Virus record (IMG/VR): IMGVR_UViG_3300021962_000068 | Span: 16,738 to 80,737 of that record | Length of the DNA: 64,000 nucleotides | DNA from: a virus | Reading direction: 5' to 3' (one strand) | Shown here: positions 8,027-64,000 of the stretch, one piece after another | Numbering within the stretch: position 1 is the first letter of the stretch | Layout: each line of letters starts with the position of its first letter | Translations under genes and position numbers: made by a program | Notes under the pieces: generated by a model | Databases searched by the model: none | What the model was told of the DNA's origin: nothing | What the model saw: only the letters and a program-made list of their open reading frames with translations

Positions 8027-9928
8027 ATGCAAGATACTATTTACGAAACTTTTATAGCAAAATCACGATATGCTCGCTATCTAGAAACTGAGCACAGACG
8101 AGAAAATTGGCATGAAACAGTAGCACGCTACTTTGATTTTATGCAGCAGCATTTAAAAAATAAACACGACTATACCCCTGATCCAGCACTAGTAGCAAAG
8201 CTACAAGCAGCTGTAGAGGCTAAAGAAGTTTTACCCAGCATGCGGTCAATTATGACAGCGGGTGAAGCACTAGATCGTGATAATACTGCGGGTTATAACT
8301 GTAGTTATATTCCAGTAGACGATCCTAAATCGTTTGATGAAGCAATGTATATTCTTATGTGTGGTACTGGCGTTGGTTTCTCAGTAGAACGTCAATATAT
8401 TTGTAAACTACCTGAAGTACCTAATAAGATTTATGAGAGTAACACAACTATCCATGTTCACGATTCAAAGGAAGGTTGGTCCAAAGCGTTGCGCCAATTG
8501 ATAGCACTGCTATATGCTGGCGAAGCACCGCAGTGGGATATTTCAAAAGTACGTCCAAGCGGTGCACGTTTAAAAATCTTTGGCGGACGTGCGTCGGGAC
8601 CCGAACCACTAGTAGACTTATTTAAGTTTGTGGTAAAAATCTTTAAAACTGCACAAGGTCGCAGGCTAACTAGCTTAGAGTGTCACGATATTATGTGTAA
8701 GATTGGAGAAGTTGTTGTTGTAGGTGGTGTACGTAGATCGGCTATGATTTCACTATCAAATCTTAGTGATGATCGTATGAGACACGCTAAAGCAGGTGCA
8801 TGGTGGGAGCAAAATGGGCAGAGAGCTCTTGCCAATAATAGTGCTTGTTATACTGAACGTCCCGAAGTAGGCGTATTTATGCAAGAATGGCTTGCACTAT
8901 ACGAATCTAAGAGTGGAGAGCGTGGTATTTTTAATCGCGAAGCAGCCCAGAAAGTAGCAGCGAAAAATGGACGTCGTAATACAGATTGGGATTTTGGTAC
9001 AAATCCTTGTTCGGAAATTATTTTACGTCCTTATCAATTTTGTAATCTCACTAGCGTGGCGGTTAGGGCTGGAGACACTGTTGATATGGTCAGAGAAAAA
9101 TCGAAAATGGCTGCGATTTTGGGAACGTGGCAAGCAACGCTAACCAACTTTCCTTACTTACGCGATGTATGGCAGCACAATACAGAAGAAGAACGTTTAC
9201 TTGGCGTATCAATGACAGGAGCACTAGATAATGCACTATTTAATAACCCTGATGATCCTGAGCTGCCCCAGCGTCTCGAATCAATCAGAGATGCCGCAGT
9301 CACCCAAAATAAAATCACCGCCGCTGAAATTGGCATTTCACAAAGTGTTGCCGTTACAGCAATCAAGCCTGAAGGTACAGTATCTCAGTTAACAGATACT
9401 GCAAGTGGACTACATACTAGACATAGCCCGTACTATATTCGCAGAGTTCGTGGTGATGTAAAAGATCCACTAACACAGTTTATGATTCGTGCTGGCGTAC
9501 CCAGCGAGCCTTGCGTAATGAAGCCAGATACTACAGTAGTATTTAGTTTTGCTAAACGTGCTCCTACTGGTGCGCTGGTGCGTGATGGTTTAACCGCGAT
9601 TCAACATCTTAAACTATGGCTAATGTTTCAACGTCACTACTGTGAGCACAAACCTAGTGTTACTATTAGTGTTAGCGAACGTGAATGGCCTGCAGTAGGT
9701 GCTTTTGTTTGGGAGCACTTTGATGAAATGAGCGGTGTTAGTTTTCTGCCTTATGATGGTGGAAGTTATCGCCAAGCACCTTATGAAGAGTGTACTGAAG
9801 AACAATACCAAGAACTATTAGCTAAAATTCCAGACGACTTAGACTGGGATACTATTATTGAAGATACAGATAATGTAGAAGGAGTGCAAAACTTAGCGTG
9901 TACCGCTGACGGATGCGAAATTATTTAA
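8027..9928 (+). CDS. nrdJ: Class II (adenosylcobalamin-dependent) ribonucleotide reductase
   Basis: YNCS, VVGGVRRSA, TNPCSEI, KPEGTVSQL and C-terminal CTADGCEI; no beta-subunit gene follows. Confidence 0.9.
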   Translation: MQDTIYETFIAKSRYARYLETEHRRENWHETVARYFDFMQQHLKNKHDYTPDPALVAKLQAAVEAKEVLPSMRSIMTAGEALDRDNTAGYNCSYIPVDDPKSFDEAMYILMCGTGVGFSVERQYICKLPEVPNKIYESNTTIHVHDSKEGWSKALRQLIALLYAGEAPQWDISKVRPSGARLKIFGGRASGPEPLVDLFKFVVKIFKTAQGRRLTSLECHDIMCKIGEVVVVGGVRRSAMISLSNLSDDRMRHAKAGAWWEQNGQRALANNSACYTERPEVGVFMQEWLALYESKSGERGIFNREAAQKVAAKNGRRNTDWDFGTNPCSEIILRPYQFCNLTSVAVRAGDTVDMVREKSKMAAILGTWQATLTNFPYLRDVWQHNTEEERLLGVSMTGALDNALFNNPDDPELPQRLESIRDAAVTQNKITAAEIGISQSVAVTAIKPEGTVSQLTDTASGLHTRHSPYYIRRVRGDVKDPLTQFMIRAGVPSEPCVMKPDTTVVFSFAKRAPTGALVRDGLTAIQHLKLWLMFQRHYCEHKPSVTISVSEREWPAVGAFVWEHFDEMSGVSFLPYDGGSYRQAPYEECTEEQYQELLAKIPDDLDWDTIIEDTDNVEGVQNLACTADGCEII

Positions 9929-49550: not shown

Positions 49551-49579
49551 ATTATAGCATGTTGATGACAAAATGTCCA
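49551..49579 (-). promoter_or_regulatory. Late promoter TGGACA-N17-TATAAT for the head operon
   Basis: Near-consensus with TG extension in an intergenic gap. Confidence 0.7.
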
Positions 49580-59082: not shown

Positions 59083-59188
59083 GAGTCAAAATTTTTTAGG
59101 TGATAAACGGTGCTTGGCATACAAAATGGTTCTGAAAAAATGCCCAAAGTTGCGCGTGTGGGTGGGCCCCCAGGCGTGTCAATTTTCT

Positions 59189-59241
59189 ATTGTCTCATAA
59201 CCGCCCTGTCCGTGTCAAGGGCCTAGTTCCACTGTGCGGAA
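59189..59241. repeat. Pre-early intergenic cassette, copy 1 (degenerate)
   Basis: CCGTGTCAAG giving minus-strand TTGACA-N18-GACAAT, then TTCC-N7-GGAA at 59227-59241. Confidence 0.7.
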
Positions 59242-59286
59242 ATAGGTATTAACTATACCAAACCGATAACCGATGAAAAAATACAA

Positions 59287-59315
59287 TTGGCAAAGCAATC
59301 TGAATCATGTATAAT
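59287..59315 (+). promoter_or_regulatory. Promoter TTGGCA-N17-TATAAT
   Basis: Near-consensus, upstream of first A2-like gene. Confidence 0.75.
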
Positions 59316-59357
59316 ATCTTTATTGTTCAACGATGCAAACACATAGGAGATCGCATC

Positions 59358-59678
59358 ATGGCCGATAAAGCTGTCAACTACACTTTCGAGCAAACCCAAC
59401 AAGTTATCACCAGCTATAAAGCAGGCGTTCCGGTTGCTGAGATTGCTGCTGCAATGGGCAAGACTGCCCGCTCGATTATTGCAAAACTCTCGCGTGAGGG
59501 AGTTTACCAGAAAAAAGAATACGTCAGCAAGACTGGCGAGCGTCCGGTTAAAAAAGACGTTCAAGCTGATGAGCTTGCTGCACTGTTCGATTTGACGGAA
59601 GCGGAAGCTGATTCGCTCACTAAGGCGAACAAAACTGCGCTTGCGAAAATCCTTGCAAAATCTCGTGCACTAGCGTAA
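59358..59678 (+). CDS. T5 A2-like DNA-binding pre-early protein, paralog 1
   Basis: AGGAG RBS before ATG 59358; NYTFEQT..EIAAAMGKTARSIIAKLSREGVYQK HTH-like segment resembling T5 A2. Confidence 0.7.
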   Translation: MADKAVNYTFEQTQQVITSYKAGVPVAEIAAAMGKTARSIIAKLSREGVYQKKEYVSKTGERPVKKDVQADELAALFDLTEAEADSLTKANKTALAKILAKSRALA

Positions 59679-59689
59679 CATTATGTTTC

Positions 59690-59703
59690 GGGGCTTCGGC
59701 CCC
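59690..59703 (+). other. GGGGC-TTCG-GCCCC tetraloop hairpin without U tract
   Basis: C(UUCG)G loop between two genes; likely RNA stabilising or processing element. Confidence 0.55.
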
Positions 59704-59722
59704 ACTTACTGGAGAAGATACT

Positions 59723-60019
59723 ATGACTGATGCAATGATCCGTGACCTGCAAACTGAACTATGGGATTTTTACAAAGATGTTCACGGCATTCGTCCTCGC
59801 CATTGGACAACTGCCGAATGGGCATCGCTGGATTTCCTGATAGAACAGCGCGCTGTACTGTGCAACATTGTAAACAACATGAGCCCGGAACAAAGGGTTG
59901 AGGAAGGCTGGTATGATAACTACGACGACAGCATGGACGGCGACCATGACTCTGCTCTGGCATCTGCTGGATGGGGCACAGATGAGGATTATGGGCATTT
60001 TGATGACGTAGACTTCTAA
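59723..60019 (+). CDS. Hypothetical protein with acidic C-terminus
   Basis: GGAG RBS; WDFYKDVHGIRPR and MDGDHDSALASAGWGTDEDYG motifs. Confidence 0.75.
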   Translation: MTDAMIRDLQTELWDFYKDVHGIRPRHWTTAEWASLDFLIEQRAVLCNIVNNMSPEQRVEEGWYDNYDDSMDGDHDSALASAGWGTDEDYGHFDDVDF

Positions 60020-60028
60020 GGTTGTCAA

Positions 60029-60176
60029 GCCCTGTTGCTTTTTTGCAACAGGGCGGCGCCAATTATACCATGTATAATTTGGCCGTGTCAAGGGGGTCTT
60101 TCCATCTACTGGAACGTGTTGTTTTTTCGTCTAAGCCTTTTGGCCTATTGACATTCTGTTAGAACAGGCTCATACT
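60029..60176. repeat. Pre-early intergenic cassette, copy 2
   Basis: Hairpin 60029-60054; palindrome ~60058-60083; minus TTGACA(60086-91)-N18-TATAAT(60062-67); TTCC-N7-GGAA 60100-60114; plus TTGACA-N17-CATACT 60148-60176. Confidence 0.85.
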
Positions 60177-60248
60177 ACACACATAGGTTGAGAACTGGAG
60201 CAGATGTCCTGCTAGATTGAACTGAAGATCGACCACCAACCAAACACT

Positions 60249-60659
60249 ATGACAAGCAAATTCAAAAACGTATCAGATGCTAGATTTGCAAAGGCGCTCG
60301 CGTTCTACTTGCAAATCCTGAATCTTGGCAATCGCGTATCGATTGAAATTCTGCCGAAAAACTTACGGCGCGGTCCGGTTGAATCACGCGCTTGGGGCTG
60401 GTGTACTCAGGAAGATCCGCTAACGTATACTGTCGAGATCGATCGCGCACTCGCTCCGCGTAACGTCCTCAAGGTTTTAGCACATGAGCTGGTTCATGTC
60501 AAGCAATACTTTACAGGACGTATGCAAGAGCACGAAGATTCTGTTTATTGGCTAGGCGAGATTTGCGAGCTAGACTATGATGAACAGCCTTGGGAAATCG
60601 AAGCGGCTGCAATGGAATCGGTTATGTATGAAGCATTTTTAGCATGGGAAACAAAATGA
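60249..60659 (+). CDS. Putative zinc metallopeptidase (HEXXH)
   Basis: LAHELVHVKQ and downstream PWEIEA. Confidence 0.75.
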   Translation: MTSKFKNVSDARFAKALAFYLQILNLGNRVSIEILPKNLRRGPVESRAWGWCTQEDPLTYTVEIDRALAPRNVLKVLAHELVHVKQYFTGRMQEHEDSVYWLGEICELDYDEQPWEIEAAAMESVMYEAFLAWETK

Positions 60660-60668
60660 AAATAGATG

Positions 60669-60696
60669 TTGACAAGATCGTTGGTTATGGTATGAT
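60669..60696 (+). promoter_or_regulatory. Promoter TTGACA-N16-TATGAT
   Basis: Consensus -35 and TG-extended -10; spacer one base short. Confidence 0.55.
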
Positions 60697-60741
60697 GTTG
60701 TGTATCGGATGTTTGATTGCACTACTCTATACAGGCACAAT

Positions 60742-60954
60742 ATGAAAACACTATCTTGGCTCGGAACTGTTGCAAGCGTGATTGGTTCGTTTGTTGTCGC
60801 GCTGGGCGCGATGCTGGCAGGGTATAGCTTGTTTATCATCGGTTCCGTGTCCTGGCTGATTGTCGCCACAAAACGCAGGGATTTGTCCCTTGCCGTTCTG
60901 AACGGATTTTTCTTTGCTGCTAACATTATCGGACTGTCAAGGGCAATATTATGA
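60742..60954 (+). CDS. Small multi-pass membrane protein
   Basis: 70 aa from ATG 60742; about three hydrophobic helices. Confidence 0.7.
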   Translation: MKTLSWLGTVASVIGSFVVALGAMLAGYSLFIIGSVSWLIVATKRRDLSLAVLNGFFFAANIIGLSRAIL

Positions 60955-61043
60955 AAGACTATGAATTTGATATGACACTAAACAATTATTGTTTTAGACT
61001 TGGGTTTTTCGTTATAACTTACTTTTTTGTGGCGGCAATATGA
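60951..61043 (+). CDS. Small hydrophobic peptide (30 aa)
   Basis: ATGA overlaps with both neighbours; MKDYEFDMTLNNYCFRLGFFVITYFFVAAI. Confidence 0.45.
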   Translation: MKDYEFDMTLNNYCFRLGFFVITYFFVAAI

Positions 61044-61201
61044 AATACTATATTATTAATATGCTAACATATTCGGCATGGTGGGCCAGCGCAGGCGAAG
61101 CGCGATTATATGCGGCATTTGCCTTACGTCACGAAATGCCATATTTGGTTACTACTGGCCCGGACTCGGCTATGATGATTTCACCTGATGAAATTGCGTA
61201 A
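61040..61201 (+). CDS. Small hypothetical protein (53 aa)
   Basis: ATGA-coupled; ends just before the cassette hairpin. Confidence 0.5.
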   Translation: MKYYIINMLTYSAWWASAGEARLYAAFALRHEMPYLVTTGPDSAMMISPDEIA

Positions 61202-61207
61202 TTAAAA

Positions 61208-61365
61208 GACCGTTGTTTTTTCGCAACGGTCGCGGCGCCAATTTTATCATTAAAATTGCGGCCGTGTCAAGAAAAAAATTGTAACAATTTGTAACTGTTG
61301 TTTTTTCGCACAGTTCCACTAGGCGGAATTTAGGGGTTGACAGTAGCGCACAATTAGATCATACT
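61208..61365. repeat. Pre-early intergenic cassette, copy 3
   Basis: Hairpin 61208-61231; CAATTTTA-N4-TAAAATTG; minus TTGACA(61265-70)-N18-TAAAAT(61241-46); TTCC-N7-GGAA 61314-61328; plus TTGACA-N17-CATACT 61337-61365. Confidence 0.85.
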
Positions 61366-61371
61366 AACAAC

Positions 61372-61488
61372 ATGAAATTCACAGCAAAACAACACCGAAA
61401 ATTTCAAGCCTGGGCTCGGGCTAGGGGCTTGACATTCGCAACCATTGCAGAATATAATTCTGCTATAGCAACATTTTTTGAGGTTTGA
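61372..61488 (+). CDS. Candidate leaderless small protein (38 aa)
   Basis: ATG 7 nt after the -10 box; MKFTAKQHRKFQAWARARGLTFATIAEYNSAIATFFEV. Confidence 0.45.
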   Translation: MKFTAKQHRKFQAWARARGLTFATIAEYNSAIATFFEV

Positions 61489-61491
61489 GCA

Positions 61492-61965
61492 ATGCAAATT
61501 AAGCGTGTTTCGATTTATGACATGGACGGCACGATTGTCGATAGCTTGCACAGGTATCGCACAATCGTTGACGATAATGGCGAACGAATCGACCTAGAAT
61601 ATTGGCGCGAGAATGAATATCGCGCAATGCAAGATAGCTTGCTGCCAATGGCAGAACAATATAAACGCGATATTCAAGATTCAGAATGTTATGTTATTAT
61701 TGCAACTGCTAGGGTTATGAATGAGCCCGATTGGGAATTTGTCGAGCGTAATTTAGGATTGCCTGATTACTTTATATCCCGTCCAAAAGATTCTAATATC
61801 TCAGGCAAAACTCTCAAGATTAATGGTTTGGCAAAATTCTTTAACTTGGTTAATTTCAAGGATGCCGAATTTACATTCTATGAGGATAATATCCAATATC
61901 TCAAAGCGGTTTGCGATAGGTTTAATATTCGAGGCGTATATGTTCCAAGCAAGCAAGGCCATTAA
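61492..61965 (+). CDS. HAD-superfamily phosphatase
   Basis: DMDGT motif I, ATAR motif II, K, YEDN motif IV; GAGG RBS. Confidence 0.85.
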   Translation: MQIKRVSIYDMDGTIVDSLHRYRTIVDDNGERIDLEYWRENEYRAMQDSLLPMAEQYKRDIQDSECYVIIATARVMNEPDWEFVERNLGLPDYFISRPKDSNISGKTLKINGLAKFFNLVNFKDAEFTFYEDNIQYLKAVCDRFNIRGVYVPSKQGH

Positions 61966-62058
61966 AACTGGCAGGGTTATTATCTTGTGTCTTTATTTAT
62001 TATCTAATAAAAAGCTAGAAGATAATATCGAACCTTATTCGAAATGGGAGCGTGATAT

Positions 62059-62313
62059 ATGGGTCACAGCATAATTGGTTATATTGGTGGATTTTTATTG
62101 GCCGTTTGCGGATTACCGCAAGCAATAGAATGTGCGCGTACTGGTCACGCAAACGGCTTAAATTGGATGTTTTTGCTGGCTTGGTTTTTTGGCGAGGTTT
62201 TTATGTTCGCTTATGTTATCCAATCCGGTGATATTCCACTAATAATGAATATCACTTTTAACTTGATACTGGTTATTATTATCTTGCGATATAAAATGCA
62301 TCCACGCGAATAA
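62059..62313 (+). CDS. PQ-loop / SemiSWEET-like membrane protein
   Basis: IGYIGGFLLAVCGLPQA..G..GL..FL, about three TM helices; GGAG RBS. Confidence 0.75.
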   Translation: MGHSIIGYIGGFLLAVCGLPQAIECARTGHANGLNWMFLLAWFFGEVFMFAYVIQSGDIPLIMNITFNLILVIIILRYKMHPRE

Positions 62314-62321
62314 TATAAATT

Positions 62322-62490
62322 GAATATGCCTATTTTTTAGGCATATTCGCGCCAATTTTACTATAGTAAAATTGGCCGTGTCAAGCGCGGCCGCGCGAAC
62401 TGTTCCACCTGTTGGAAATTGTTGTTTGTTAGCCACAATTCCACTAGGCGGAATTTAGGGGTTGACCGCAGCGATATTATGGGCGATAAT
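62322..62490. repeat. Pre-early intergenic cassette, copy 4
   Basis: Hairpin 62322-62348; perfect 26-bp palindrome 62351-62376; minus TTGACA(62379-84)-N18-TAAAAT(62355-60); TTCC-N7-GGAA at 62403 and 62439; plus TTGACC-N17-GATAAT 62462-62490. Confidence 0.88.
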
Positions 62491-62521
62491 ATATCTTTAA
62501 ACGCAACTAAGGAATTGCAAA

Positions 62522-62848
62522 ATGGCTACGAAAACCATTAATTATACTCCGGAACAAACTCTGAAAATCGTTACCGATTATCAATCGGGTATTTCCGTCG
62601 AAACCCTTGCCGAAACTTTTGGCAAAACTACTCGCTCGATTATTGCTAAATTGTCGCGCGAAGGCGTATATCAGAAAAAAGAATATGTTTCAAAAACTGG
62701 CGATAAGCCTGTTAAAAAAGATACTGTAGCTGATGCAATTGGCGCAATTTTGCGACTAACAGAATCAGAAACAGAATCGCTTACAAAAGCTAATAAAACG
62801 GCATTAAATAAAATCTTTAATGCCCTGGCTAATTCTAAGCCGTTGTAA
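62522..62848 (+). CDS. T5 A2-like DNA-binding pre-early protein, paralog 2
   Basis: Shares RSIIAKLSREGVYQKKEYVSKTG and SLTKANKTAL with 59358-59678; AAGGA RBS. Confidence 0.7.
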   Translation: MATKTINYTPEQTLKIVTDYQSGISVETLAETFGKTTRSIIAKLSREGVYQKKEYVSKTGDKPVKKDTVADAIGAILRLTESETESLTKANKTALNKIFNALANSKPL

Positions 62849-62864
62849 ATAAACAACATGGGTA

Positions 62865-62893
62865 TTGACAAAAAATCAATACCCATTTATACT
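62865..62893 (+). promoter_or_regulatory. Promoter TTGACA-N17-TATACT inside an 11-bp inverted repeat
   Basis: ATGGGTATTGA-N7-TCAATACCCAT at 62858-62886 overlaps the -35 and spacer. Confidence 0.7.
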
Positions 62894-62916
62894 TTGTTTT
62901 TTACTTGGATACTTTA

Positions 62917-63612
62917 ATGGCTAAACCACAATATTTTCTGATTGTCGATACCGAAACCACGATTCAAGATACCGTGTTTGATTTTGCTGCGGTACTGGTA
63001 AATCGTCGCGGCGATATCGTCAAGCAATGCGCGGTTATTGTACGCGAATCCCTTAATACTGAATTGTTTTTTGACTCCAATGCAGACTCGCACTTCTCGA
63101 AAAAATCACTTACTCGTCGCCACGATAATTATAATCGTATGCTTGATAATGGTTCGCGTATTATCGCTTCTGCTGCTGCAATTAATCGCTGGCTCGAGCG
63201 TGTTAATACCCAATATAAGCCCGAATTGACTGCATATAATCTTGCTTTCGATTTGACTAAATCTCGTAATACTGGTATTGACCTAGATATTTTTGCAAAG
63301 CGATTTTGCCTTTGGCAATTAGCTGTCGGGCATTTTGCTAAAACCCATAAATACCGCAGATTTGTTTTGCAAAACCACCTATTTAATCCGCCGACTAAAC
63401 ACGGCAATATGACCTACAAAACCAATGCCGAGGTTATGTCGAGTTTTGTTTGCGGCGAAATGTTACCGCCCGAACCGCATACCGCATTGGAAGATATTAT
63501 TCATTATGAATTGCCGATTTTGGTTGCAATTGCCAAACGTGATAACTGGCGCGAGCGTGCTACTAATTATGATTGGCAGCAATTTCAAGTAAAAGATAAC
63601 TTTGGGATTTAA
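62917..63612 (+). CDS. DEDDh (DnaQ-like) 3'-5' exonuclease
   Basis: IVDTET ExoI, AYNLAFD ExoII, HTALED ExoIII; ATG at 62917. Confidence 0.85.
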   Translation: MAKPQYFLIVDTETTIQDTVFDFAAVLVNRRGDIVKQCAVIVRESLNTELFFDSNADSHFSKKSLTRRHDNYNRMLDNGSRIIASAAAINRWLERVNTQYKPELTAYNLAFDLTKSRNTGIDLDIFAKRFCLWQLAVGHFAKTHKYRRFVLQNHLFNPPTKHGNMTYKTNAEVMSSFVCGEMLPPEPHTALEDIIHYELPILVAIAKRDNWRERATNYDWQQFQVKDNFGI

Positions 63613-63940
63613 TATGCAACAATTTATTTTTGATTTAATCCACGAATTAGAAATTCGCAAACCCGTTGATATTAAATTATCAACCCGTCGCTCTAAAATA
63701 TCCGGATTATATGATCCTATATATTCTGATTCGGGCCGGCTAAAATCACATAAGATAACCATTTGGCTAGATAAAGATAATCGCCCATTAAAAACTTTAA
63801 TTGCTCACGAATTAATCCATGCCTGGCAGGAAGAAAATAAAAAGCAGGATATACATGGAGAATCTTTTCGAGATTTGGCGCAATATCTAGAATCTAAATA
63901 TAATATGCGCGATATATTCGATCCTGAATTAGACGATTAA
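63602..63940 (+). CDS. SprT-like zinc metalloprotease (probable ATG 63614)
   Basis: IAHELIHAWQ followed by HGESF. Confidence 0.75.
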   Translation: MGFNMQQFIFDLIHELEIRKPVDIKLSTRRSKISGLYDPIYSDSGRLKSHKITIWLDKDNRPLKTLIAHELIHAWQEENKKQDIHGESFRDLAQYLESKYNMRDIFDPELDD

Positions 63941-63946
63941 TCACAC

Positions 63947-63970
63947 AAAACCCGGTTATTTCCGGGTTTT
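63947..63970. terminator. Bidirectional intrinsic terminator
   Basis: AAAACCCGG-N6-CCGGGTTTT. Confidence 0.75.
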
Positions 63971-64000
63971 ATTTTGCCTATTTTTTAGGCAAAATGGCGC
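63971..64000. repeat. Start of pre-early cassette copy 5 (truncated by window edge)
   Basis: ATTTTGCCTA-TTTTT-TAGGCAAAAT hairpin (same core as 62322-62348) followed by GGCGC. Confidence 0.7.

Follow-up and report, generated by a model that had tools for sequence, protein, structure and literature searches.

The closest known elements to the repeats described here are the PeSL cassettes (promoter-early stem-loops) of T4-type phages (Arbiol et al, 2010, PMC2839356; Comeau et al, 2014, PMC4122927). Like our units, PeSLs combine a stem-loop with a near-perfect sigma-70 promoter, recur many times in plastic regions of small accessory ORFs, and are found at the edges of blocks that vary from one related phage to another, where they have been proposed to act as recombination anchors (PMC2839356, PMC4122927). 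The PeSL promoter faces the next gene and has a 17-bp spacer, whereas the promoter here faces the previous block, has an 18-bp spacer, and sits inside a palindrome followed by GGCGC, with a separate, weaker sense promoter for the next block. PeSL phages are also T4-like, whereas the phage here is T5-like. We found no published description of a backward promoter-hairpin unit of this kind. In phage lambda, the backward promoter pO lies just past the 3' end of an early gene and yields OOP, a short structured antisense RNA that lowers the expression of that gene. The units resemble pO in lying beyond the 3' ends of early genes; in contrast to single-copy OOP with its clear intrinsic terminator, however, there are 6-10 copies per genome, most without a canonical terminator, and some are arranged in tandem with no gene to oppose.

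The stretch we analyzed (the window, 64,000 nt of an 80.7-kb contig) is part of an uncultured marine relative of phage T5. An earlier note, made from the sequence alone, had reported an invariant motif in four intergenic gaps. An exact search of the window and the contig confirmed this: CCGTGTCAAG occurs at 59210, 60083, 61262, and 62376, always on the plus strand and always intergenic, and there are no further copies in the contig. Composition and length predict about 0.1 exact copies; the shuffle expectation of 1.72 refers to matches allowing up to one mismatch. The proposed minus-strand reading, TTGACA followed after 18 bp by a -10 hexamer, was recovered by an independent consensus scan, in which the sites at 60091 (TATAAT), 61270 (TAAAAT), and 62384 (TAAAAT) are among the best in the region, scoring 12, 11, and 11 of 12, with TG preceding the -10 in copies 2 and 3. 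At the level of sequence, the anatomy of the unit on the minus strand holds as a near-consensus sigma-70 promoter: UP-like A-tracts, TTGACA, an 18-bp spacer, TGn, TATAAT or TAAAAT, GGCGC, and a stem-loop. Such a match defines a candidate promoter and does not by itself prove initiation. No RNA sequencing run was found to contain this DNA.

The copies in the window, all on the minus strand, differ in how much of this anatomy they retain. Copy 1 (59189-59219) reads TTGACA-18-GACAAT from 59218 to 59189, with the -35 at 59213-59218 and the -10-like hexamer at 59189-59194; because GCGCC, palindrome, and hairpin are all missing, we regard it as a degenerate relic. A partial second GGCGTGTCAA lies beside it at 59175-59184. 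The promoter of copy 2 (60055-60092) has its -35 TTGACA at 60086-60091, overlapping the CCGTGTCAAG 10-mer at 60083-60092, an 18-bp spacer, TATAAT with TGn at 60062-60067, GGCGCC at 60055-60060, and an imperfect palindrome at 60058-60083. Its hairpin (60029-60054) has a 10-bp stem, GCCCTGTTGC/GCAACAGGGC, and an A6 loop on the minus strand, with no U-tract after it on either strand. Copy 3 (61234-61271) has its -35 at 61265-61270, an 18-bp spacer, TAAAAT with TGn at 61241-61246, and GGCGCC at 61234-61239; in its hairpin (61208-61231) the stem is 8 bp long, and on the minus strand TTTTAATT comes next, which makes the hairpin terminator-like there. In copy 4 (62349-62385) the -35 lies at 62379-62384, the spacer is again 18 bp, TAAAAT is at 62355-62360, and GCGCC is at 62349-62353. 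The perfect 26-bp palindrome claimed for this copy is indeed present (GCCAATTTTACTATAGTAAAATTGGC, 62351-62376), and its hairpin (62322-62348), built on an 11-bp stem, GAATATGCCTA/TAGGCATATTC, carries an AT-rich tail when read on the minus strand. Copy 5 (63947-64000) is truncated where the contig stops: positions 63947-63970 hold a two-way terminator hairpin, which is followed by the unit's own hairpin at 63971-63995, with the same GCCTA-loop-TAGGC apex as copy 4, and by GGCGC at 63996-64000, which closes the window. All four hairpins are thus as described earlier. A contig of another sequencing run, in which the array continues, extends more than 1.1 kb beyond 64000, so the contig end is an assembly break and not a DNA end.

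Between the backward promoter and the sense promoter of the next block we found the operator-like boxes that had been noted earlier, in the form TTCCA-N6-GGAA, at 59227-59241 and further at 60100-60114, 61314-61328, 62403-62417, and 62439-62453. There are five in the four cassettes and one elsewhere, compared with 0.43 expected (eight matches if both strands of two palindromic boxes are counted). A second small hairpin or palindrome lies on the -35 side of copy 3 (61293-61315); its core, ACTGTTGTTTTTTCGCA, is 94% identical to that of the copy 3 hairpin, and related pieces occur at 60116-60132 and 62418-62441. The backward promoter is therefore bracketed. The consensus scan also bore out a predicted sense promoter after each cassette, at 59287-59315 (TTGGCA-17-TATAAT), 60148-60176, 61337-61365, 61429-61458, and 62462-62490. 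Two others, at 60669-60696 and 62865-62893, are internal. Sense promoters follow 40% of units compared with a background of 13%, and their agreement with the consensus is poorer than that of the backward promoters. The plus-strand gene blocks bounded by the units (59358-63940) encode two A2-like DNA-binding paralogs (59358-59678 and 62522-62848; 63% identical to each other), a dmp-like HAD phosphatase (61492-61965), two SprT-like proteins, a PQ-loop membrane protein, an exonuclease-like protein, and small ORFs.

The unit is widespread among related viruses. The pattern TTGACA-N17/18-TAnAAT-N0-3-GGCGC is matched by 169 distinct copies over 55 loci and is present in at least 54 related viral contigs in IMG/VR. 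Loss of the 18-bp spacing in relatives had been named beforehand as an outcome that would refute the idea, but the spacing is kept: the spacer is 18 bp in 157 of the 169 copies. Also conserved are the TG ahead of the -10, A-tracts that precede the -35 hexamer by about 5-7 and 16-20 nt (positions near -42 and -55), and the palindrome across spacer and -10, whose length varies among copies while the -35/-10 spacing stays constant; GGCGC is retained even in 12 units without a palindrome. None of the 55 loci has copies on both strands. Five near-complete genomes of ~100 kb each carry 6-10 copies, on one strand, in a single cluster of 5-8 kb, antisense to small ORFs. In a crude ORF test of 108 listed copies, 71 have co-directional genes on both sides, 16 lack an ORF on one side, and 21 have an opposite-strand call, some of these calls being spurious. 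T5 and three further cultured Demerecviridae lack the unit, and in 185,579 bacterial species genomes the pattern occurs at chance level only, inside coding sequence.

Neighboring proteins are only 40-83% identical to their homologues, and the unit core is nonetheless near-identical across genomes. This bears on the idea that the units have no function of their own and are regulatory debris, spread by recombination or duplication and kept through being embedded in intergenic cassettes. Direct-orientation repeats and the duplicated blocks in the window (two A2-like and two SprT-like genes) would fit this idea, but a conserved core in genomes whose proteins are 40-80% identical, strict orientation, kept spacing, compensatory stem changes, and a spacer that is still palindromic indicate purifying selection, and we consider debris extremely improbable.

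The hairpin that follows GGCGC is conserved as well. It begins 0-8 nt past GGCGC in 127 of 160 copies (143 distinct sequences), and its mean folding energy is -15.7 kcal/mol compared with -7.9 kcal/mol for shuffles. Stems pair in 86 of 90 cells; sliding the partners lowers this to 40-47 of 90. Five pairs show compensatory changes, so the stem covariation anticipated for relatives is found. The GC-rich discriminator proposed between -10 and hairpin fared less well: GGCGC(C) is present there in copies 2-4, but its distance to the -10 slides by 0-3 nt, tracking the outer end of the palindrome. Because this distance is not fixed, the analogy with stringently controlled promoters is weak. In the P1 promoters of rrn operons the spacer is 16 bp long, the -35 departs from consensus, and the discriminator position is fixed. 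The units share with them A-rich, UP-like upstream DNA, strong core hexamers, and a GCGC-rich segment from -10 to start, but have an 18-bp spacer, two consensus hexamers, and a sliding GGCGC.

The earlier claim that no minus-strand gene is served by these promoters is true locally. The same strand, however, carries an adjoining 49-kb block of late genes toward which all window copies point, and the start codon of the tail-fibre gene follows ~160 bp downstream of copy 1. Terminator-like signals on the promoter strand occur within 60-100 nt in only 14-29% of units, so transcripts may be long and would then enter the late block, a point against the boundary reading preferred below. The hairpin RNA itself might be the product: a stable-RNA-style promoter would yield an abundant short RNA carrying a loop that a specific factor recognizes, either for nut/boxB-like antitermination into the late genes or as a small RNA binding a host or phage protein. 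In lambda nut sites the boxB hairpin is read by N, and the put RNA of HK022 is comparable. The units likewise have a promoter-proximal hairpin whose position is tied to the predicted start site and not to the upstream stop codon; apexes are shared within a genome and different between genomes, one subclade keeps a constant 12-nt loop, CAAAAGTATTCA, on four different covarying stems, and the units face a same-strand late block in the window and four relatives. Unlike nut and put, there are many copies and not two, neither a boxA-like motif nor an N-like protein was identified, and loop orientation is not kept in other subclades. Indeed, in relatives with a GTGTTGC/GCAACAC stem the loop on a given strand is A-rich in some and T-rich in others, which disfavors loop-specific RNA reading there; moreover, the late block has TGnTATAAT promoters of its own and the hairpin has no Rfam match. 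We think this explanation quite unlikely.

GGCGC and hairpin could instead form a site for a phage nickase like the one in T5, or serve another DNA-end or packaging function, with the likeness to a promoter secondary. The major nicks of T5 fall at R/GCGCRGG on one strand only (PMC3517423; AY543070 annotation), and we located matches in T5 at 9748, 22336, 39746, 78573, and 121279. The units resemble these sites in having a purine before the GCGC core, in lying all on one strand, in the hairpin that follows directly (a GC-rich one does so at the T5 nick at 9748), and in belonging to a related phage lineage; the persistence of GGCGC in the 12 palindrome-less units would fit as well. The flanking consensus is not common to the units, however: the RGG after GCGC is unmet in the window (GCGCCGC, GCGCCGC, GCGCGAA) and the GTAAY found 30-35 nt upstream of T5 nicks is absent. 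T5 sites are dispersed along the genome and lack promoter hexamers. Genome-wide, GGCGC is not an unusual sequence, the contig end at TG/GCGC stems from assembly, and nicking would not account for a complete set of consensus -35, TGn, and -10 elements held at constant spacing. We consider a nick site very unlikely.

Our preferred reading, to which we give a probability of roughly 45%, is that the units are genuine host sigma-70 promoters set backward at the ends of early-gene blocks, acting as boundary elements and recombination anchors. Host RNA polymerase would bind very tightly through the UP-like A-tracts, TTGACA, TGn, and TATAAT, and transcription would start in or beside GGCGC, on the strand opposite the genes, running straight into the stable stem-loop. 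Head-on polymerases and the short hairpin-capped antisense RNA may then halt or weaken transcription that runs out of the upstream block, and each block would rely on a weaker sense promoter of its own. In keeping with a boundary role, canonical sense-strand terminators lie within 100 nt of only 24% of block ends. The backward promoter is probably switchable, given that its spacer and -10 are self-complementary and that palindromes flank it; a phage or host protein, or extrusion driven by supercoiling, would work the switch, which would let early genes be throttled. Since elongating polymerases usually dislodge promoter-bound ones, a head-on stop is, to our knowledge, not an established terminator mechanism.

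Of 141 spacings between units, 12 are tandem arrangements of under 200 nt that enclose no gene, and these suit a self-contained unit better than a gene-specific brake. They would also suit very high-affinity binding sites for host proteins on the first-expressed DNA, where bound sigma-70 polymerase (other host proteins in relatives) coats, anchors, paces, or protects the DNA or titrates factors and the RNA product is irrelevant. Every recognition element is at consensus, and such elements together with a GC-rich start region favor tight polymerase binding and slow escape; the backward sites are also nearer consensus than the gene-serving promoters. In relatives, an exact parS (TGTTTCACGTGAAACA) lies 24-68 nt past GGCGC; on the opposite side, at 34-75 nt, comes a sigma-54 consensus (TGGCACGATTCTTGC), frequently as two copies. 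First-injected T5 DNA similarly holds arrays of host DnaA boxes (Davison, bioRxiv 10.1101/866236), but no DnaA-box cluster was found in the relatives, and the window cassettes lack both parS and sigma-54 motifs. Furthermore, 6-10 sites per genome are too few to titrate thousands of polymerases, and stem covariation points to a folded nucleic acid and not to a duplex binding site. We therefore judge docking or titration unlikely.

Returning to the backward boundary promoter, the ~40-bp core recurs 6-10 times in direct orientation, and the unit may therefore be a homologous-recombination anchor that shuffles blocks. Gene-block order differs among genomes, with units at the block boundaries. Breakpoints of high-identity matches fall within 100 nt of units in 35% of cases compared with 19% for random positions; since this baseline is not other intergenic gaps, the enrichment may reflect only ordinary phage mosaicism. 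Two observations support the anchor idea, which the earlier note had raised: the shuffling of block order, and a strain variant, seen in an independent run of 2024, whose sequence diverges from position 62396, 11 nt past the motif.

The window comes from an IMG/VR viral contig of 80.7 kb (estimated completeness 77%) and makes up its right-hand 64 kb. The same DNA is carried by marine and estuary metagenomes, and none of the runs listed for it is an RNA run. A megablast search of cultured phages returned no close DNA relative. The protease-capsid protein and a dmp-like phosphatase are only 32-37% identical to their nearest counterparts in cultured Demerecviridae (T5-like phages), which argues that the source is a distant, uncultured T5-like phage. 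Along the contig, plus-strand genes give way to a 49-kb late block on the minus strand and then to small plus-strand genes that run from 59.2 kb to the end. These small genes encode two SprT-like proteins, a dmp-like HAD phosphatase, a PQ-loop membrane protein, an exonuclease-like protein, and two A2-like DNA-binding paralogs (59358-59678 and 62522-62848) that are 63% identical to each other and match T5 A2 weakly (E = 0.003). Synteny and the weak similarity to T5 dmp and A2 suggest that this is a pre-early cluster; relatives carry two to three A2-like genes per genome (50 members in 20 genomes). The last bases of the window are TG/GCGC, and a contig from another run extends more than 1.1 kb further, so the contig end is an assembly break rather than a physical end or a nick. 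In a contig from another run, X2, a third A2-like stretch lies about 0.9 kb beyond the window end, past 64000.

Within this cluster, the 10-mer CCGTGTCAAG, described in the earlier note as a repeated motif, is present in four exact copies (59210, 60083, 61262, and 62376), all on the plus strand and all intergenic. The note had also read these copies as minus-strand promoters. This reading holds for copies 2-4, where TTGACA is followed after 18 bp by TATAAT, TAAAAT, and TAAAAT, respectively; they score 12, 11, and 11 of 12 against the sigma-70 consensus, with a spacer inside the accepted 16-19 bp range, and are among the best consensus matches of the region. A single base separates the -10 hexamer from GGCGC(C), and an 8-11 bp stem-loop begins 0-2 bases later. 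Copy 1 keeps the -35 hexamer and the spacing, has GACAAT at the -10 position, and lacks GCGCC, palindrome, and hairpin; of copy 5, only the hairpin (63971-63995) and GGCGC lie before the contig end. The units start 10-62 nt past the stop codons of the upstream ORFs. The surrounding intergenic cassettes contain the sense promoters that had been proposed, as well as the operator-like boxes: TTCCA-N6-GGAA occurs five times in four cassettes and once elsewhere, compared to 0.43 expected. The hexamer GGCGCC itself is neither avoided nor enriched (4 sites vs 3.6 expected). Cassette 3 also has a direct repeat, TTGTAAC-AAT-TTGTAAC (61279-61295), between its backward and sense promoters, and the same box is found in three related loci (L019, L052, and L038).

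The pattern GCGCCAATT-N18-CCGTGTCAAG was found in 54 IMG/VR contigs. A broader search that omits the 10-mer (TTGACA-N17/18-TAnAAT-N0-3-GGCGC) yielded 169 distinct copies at 55 loci, and the 18-bp spacing on which the note had remarked is kept in 157 of them. The relatives' copies also conserve a TG ahead of the -10 and A-tracts at roughly -42 and -55, some 5-7 and 16-20 nt before the -35 hexamer, a position that would suit an UP element. At none of the 55 loci do copies lie on both strands. In each of five near-complete genomes of about 100 kb, 6-10 copies sit on one strand in a single 5-8 kb cluster, opposite small ORFs, between the late block and an ORF-poor stretch. The unit was not found in T5, Vibrio phage D254, Eos, or Kamaji, even with one mismatch allowed, and 185,579 bacterial species genomes (596 Gb) gave four pattern matches, about the number expected by chance; the two that we read both fall inside coding sequence, without the AT palindrome and with no tRNA nearby.

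From genome to genome, the proteins that flank the units share 40-83% identity, yet the core of the unit is near-identical, which shows that the core is under selection. This conservation pattern contradicts the view that the units are functionless repeats, a view that we find hardly credible. A full consensus recognition set at fixed spacing is hard to explain other than by selection for binding of sigma-70 polymerase, and on this ground we read the units as backward promoters that the host enzyme would bind and start from. The unit is real, strongly conserved, and apparently undescribed; the literature that we searched on backward consensus-promoter arrays in T5-like phages contained no description of them.

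The promoter is embedded in a second conserved feature. The spacer mirrors the -10 hexamer, with at least 10 of 14 mirrored positions in 128 of 169 copies compared to 5 of 845 shuffled spacers. The two main palindrome types, AATTATAT-N3-ATATAATT and AAAATTAT-N5-ATAATTTT, differ by 2 bp in overall length, whereas the -35 to -10 distance is constant at 18 bp in both. Palindrome length thus varies while promoter spacing is fixed, indicating that self-complementarity is kept rather than the geometry of a fixed dimer site; a fixed dimeric repressor on arms that shift by 2 bp is unlikely. GGCGC lies 0, 1, 2, or 3 nt from the -10 in 6, 70, 15, and 78 copies, respectively; the distance varies because GGCGC tracks the outer end of the palindrome, yet GGCGC is also retained in the 12 copies without a palindrome. 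In promoters of the rrn P1 type, the spacer is short (16 bp) and a GC-rich discriminator adjoins the -10 at a constant position. The earlier proposal that GGCGC is a discriminator is weakened by its variable position, and a stringently controlled promoter of the rrn P1 type fits neither the 0-3 nt gap nor the 18-bp spacer. The opposite end of the contig, before the window (positions 1-90), starts with TTGGCGCCAA, a GGCGCC palindrome outside the cluster, adjoining a sense promoter, TTGTCA-17-TGnTATAAT.

GGCGC also recalls the nicks of T5, which occur on one strand only at the consensus R/GCGCRGG (PMC3517423). The units do carry R-GCGC on one strand, as a T5-type nick site would, but the RGG extension is missing in the window, the flanks are unlike those of T5 and lack its upstream GTAAY, the sites in T5 lie scattered, and nicking would not call for promoter hexamers; we consider a nick site very unlikely. 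On the minus strand of T5 (AY543070), the nick consensus matches at 9748, 22336, 39746, and 78573 (loci L059 and L065-L067 of our comparison set). All four matches have GTAAY 30-35 nt 5' of the nick, and a further match at 107523 does not. We take the four to be the classical major-nick map positions of T5 (only 9748 was seen annotated), and 107523 not to be one. The T5 nick signal may have GTAAY as its second, hitherto missing part.

Of 160 copies (143 distinct sequences), 127 have a hairpin that starts 0-8 nt beyond GGCGC; the mean folding energy is -15.7 kcal/mol compared to -7.9 for shuffles. The note had observed that the stems differ while their pairing is kept, and a gapless alignment of nine copies sharing one register bears this out: 86 of 90 cells pair, compared to 40-47 of 90 with slid partners, and compensatory changes occur at five pairs around a constant 12-nt loop, CAAAAGTATTCA. 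The copies of one genome share their hairpin apexes, which are different in other genomes. In the window, two of four hairpins are terminator-like on the minus strand. Across the family, terminator-like signals on the promoter strand lie within 60 nt in 23 of 168 units and within 100 nt in 48 (29%); on the sense strand, 41 of 168 (24%) have one within 100 nt; the background for both strands is 6.5%. Mean T counts in the 8 nt after the stem are 2.1 and 1.5. Intrinsic (Rho-independent) terminators have a GC-containing stem with an immediate U-tract; signals of this kind occur in a minority of units, and the hairpins are mostly not canonical terminators. No match to known RNA families reaches the gathering score. 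Some hairpins resemble Fur boxes, but a loose motif scan was uninformative (92 matches, mostly far from units).

The constant loop on covarying stems would fit the idea that the hairpin RNA is what the unit is there to produce, perhaps as a nut-like signal to polymerases bound for the late block on the same strand. Other subclades flip the loop orientation, however, and the late block has promoters of its own, leaving this idea distinctly unlikely. These late promoters have TGnTATAAT, a -35 that varies, and a start region rich in A (AATCAAAACT is an example). They lie on the minus strand at 59082-59054, just upstream of the tail-fibre gene, and at 49579, 41203, and 24105. Their existence also weakens a late-gene promoter role for the units. 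The late promoters form a class of their own, unlike either the GGCGC class or the sense early promoters.

Every gene block has its own predicted sense promoter behind a unit. They are poorer consensus matches than the backward promoters; 40% reach 10 of 13, compared to 13% of background. Three quarters of block ends lack a canonical terminator, and the hairpin and backward promoter are the only thing conserved there. Together, the weaker sense promoters, the rare terminators, and the conservation of the unit alone at block ends lead us to read it as a block-boundary element. Its action would rely on head-on transcription together with an antisense RNA capped by the hairpin; it would probably be switchable via its palindromes and would double as a recombination anchor. 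We give this reading, in which polymerase binding, initiation, and effect are all inferred, a probability of roughly 45%. At every block boundary, an uncultured clade of 54 IMG/VR contigs has its best host-type promoters facing backward, with spacing, palindrome, and covarying hairpin kept under clear selection. To our knowledge, the timing and shut-off of the first-expressed genes in T5-like phages are still unexplained. If the units fire, they would give early genes a built-in antisense or collision brake and an insulator, a ready-made part for synthetic insulation.

Sites for other host factors adjoin the units in relatives. Exact copies of the bacterial parS consensus, TGTTTCACGTGAAACA, lie 24-68 nt beyond GGCGC, on the transcribed side of the backward promoters (L009:1186-1201, L009:2949-2964, L027:944-959, and L027:1820-1835, numbered by locus of the comparison set), whereas the 553 kb that we searched should contain about 0.001 such sites by chance; near-exact copies are found in L008, L011, L025, and L052. 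The gene strand carries the sigma-54 -24/-12 consensus, TGGCACGATTCTTGC, 34-75 nt away on the -35 side of the backward promoters; it is often doubled at a distance of 26 nt, with 22 matches compared to about 1 expected (L008:11675, L024:553, L026:2003 and 2029, L034:4033, L036:13110, L039:7180 and 7206, L042:8365 and 8390, L043:9434 and 9460, L045:9025, and L048:5459). These boxes may be sigma-54 promoters for the next block or binding sites only.

Such neighbors, and the tandem units that have no gene between them, favor an array that docks or decoys host proteins. Neither parS nor sigma-54 boxes occur in the cassettes of this window. We regard such an array as unlikely. In its fullest form, which we consider somewhat less likely still, the first-expressed end would be a programmable docking array, each unit being a consensus site for host sigma-70 polymerase and the neighboring palindromes in relatives being ParB (parS) and sigma-54 sites, so that host proteins, not transcripts, would set the pace of DNA entry, protect the DNA, or keep the early region silent. 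It would be a dispersed counterpart of the T5 injection-stop region, where paired DnaA boxes lie within large inverted repeats on the first-injected DNA (Davison, 10.1101/866236). A T5-like injection-stop DnaA array itself can be set aside: relatives have no TTWTNCACA cluster, with 0-4 scattered matches per locus, and the unit pattern is missing from T5. If the units only bind polymerase, they would be host-factor docking elements of a new kind on the entering DNA. Whether firing or binding, they would also explain the shuffling of accessory early genes in the clade.

The order and grouping of the gene families (A2-like, dmp-like, exonuclease-like, PQ-loop, SprT-like, and others) vary by genome, and units lie where the blocks meet. 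Among described elements, the PeSL cassettes of T4-type phages come closest; in them, a stem-loop and a near-perfect sigma-70 promoter border shuffled ORFs (PMC2839356, PMC4122927). Our units likewise join a stem-loop to a near-consensus promoter and are repeated at block borders in plastic regions. The PeSL promoter, however, reads into the downstream ORF, whereas all units oppose the flanking genes; because this defining direction differs, we do not class them as PeSLs but treat them as a variant of promoter/stem-loop boundary cassettes. Lambda pO/OOP works similarly: its promoter faces backward at an early gene's 3' end, as do the units in the window, but it is single and terminated. OOP-type RNAs are short, with a defined terminator, and overlap the 3' end of the gene; a minority of units carry a terminator-like signal.

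Ends of high-identity matches between loci fall within 100 nt of units in 35% of cases, compared to 19% for a control of random positions rather than of other intergenic gaps. An independent 2024 marine run, X4, contains one contig, a strain variant, that is identical to the window through 62395, 11 nt past the copy 4 motif, and then diverges sharply, with 22 base differences and four indels over 133 nt (62396-62528). Within this variable stretch fall the boxes and the sense promoter, as well as the start of the A2-like gene; another X4 contig agrees with the window throughout.
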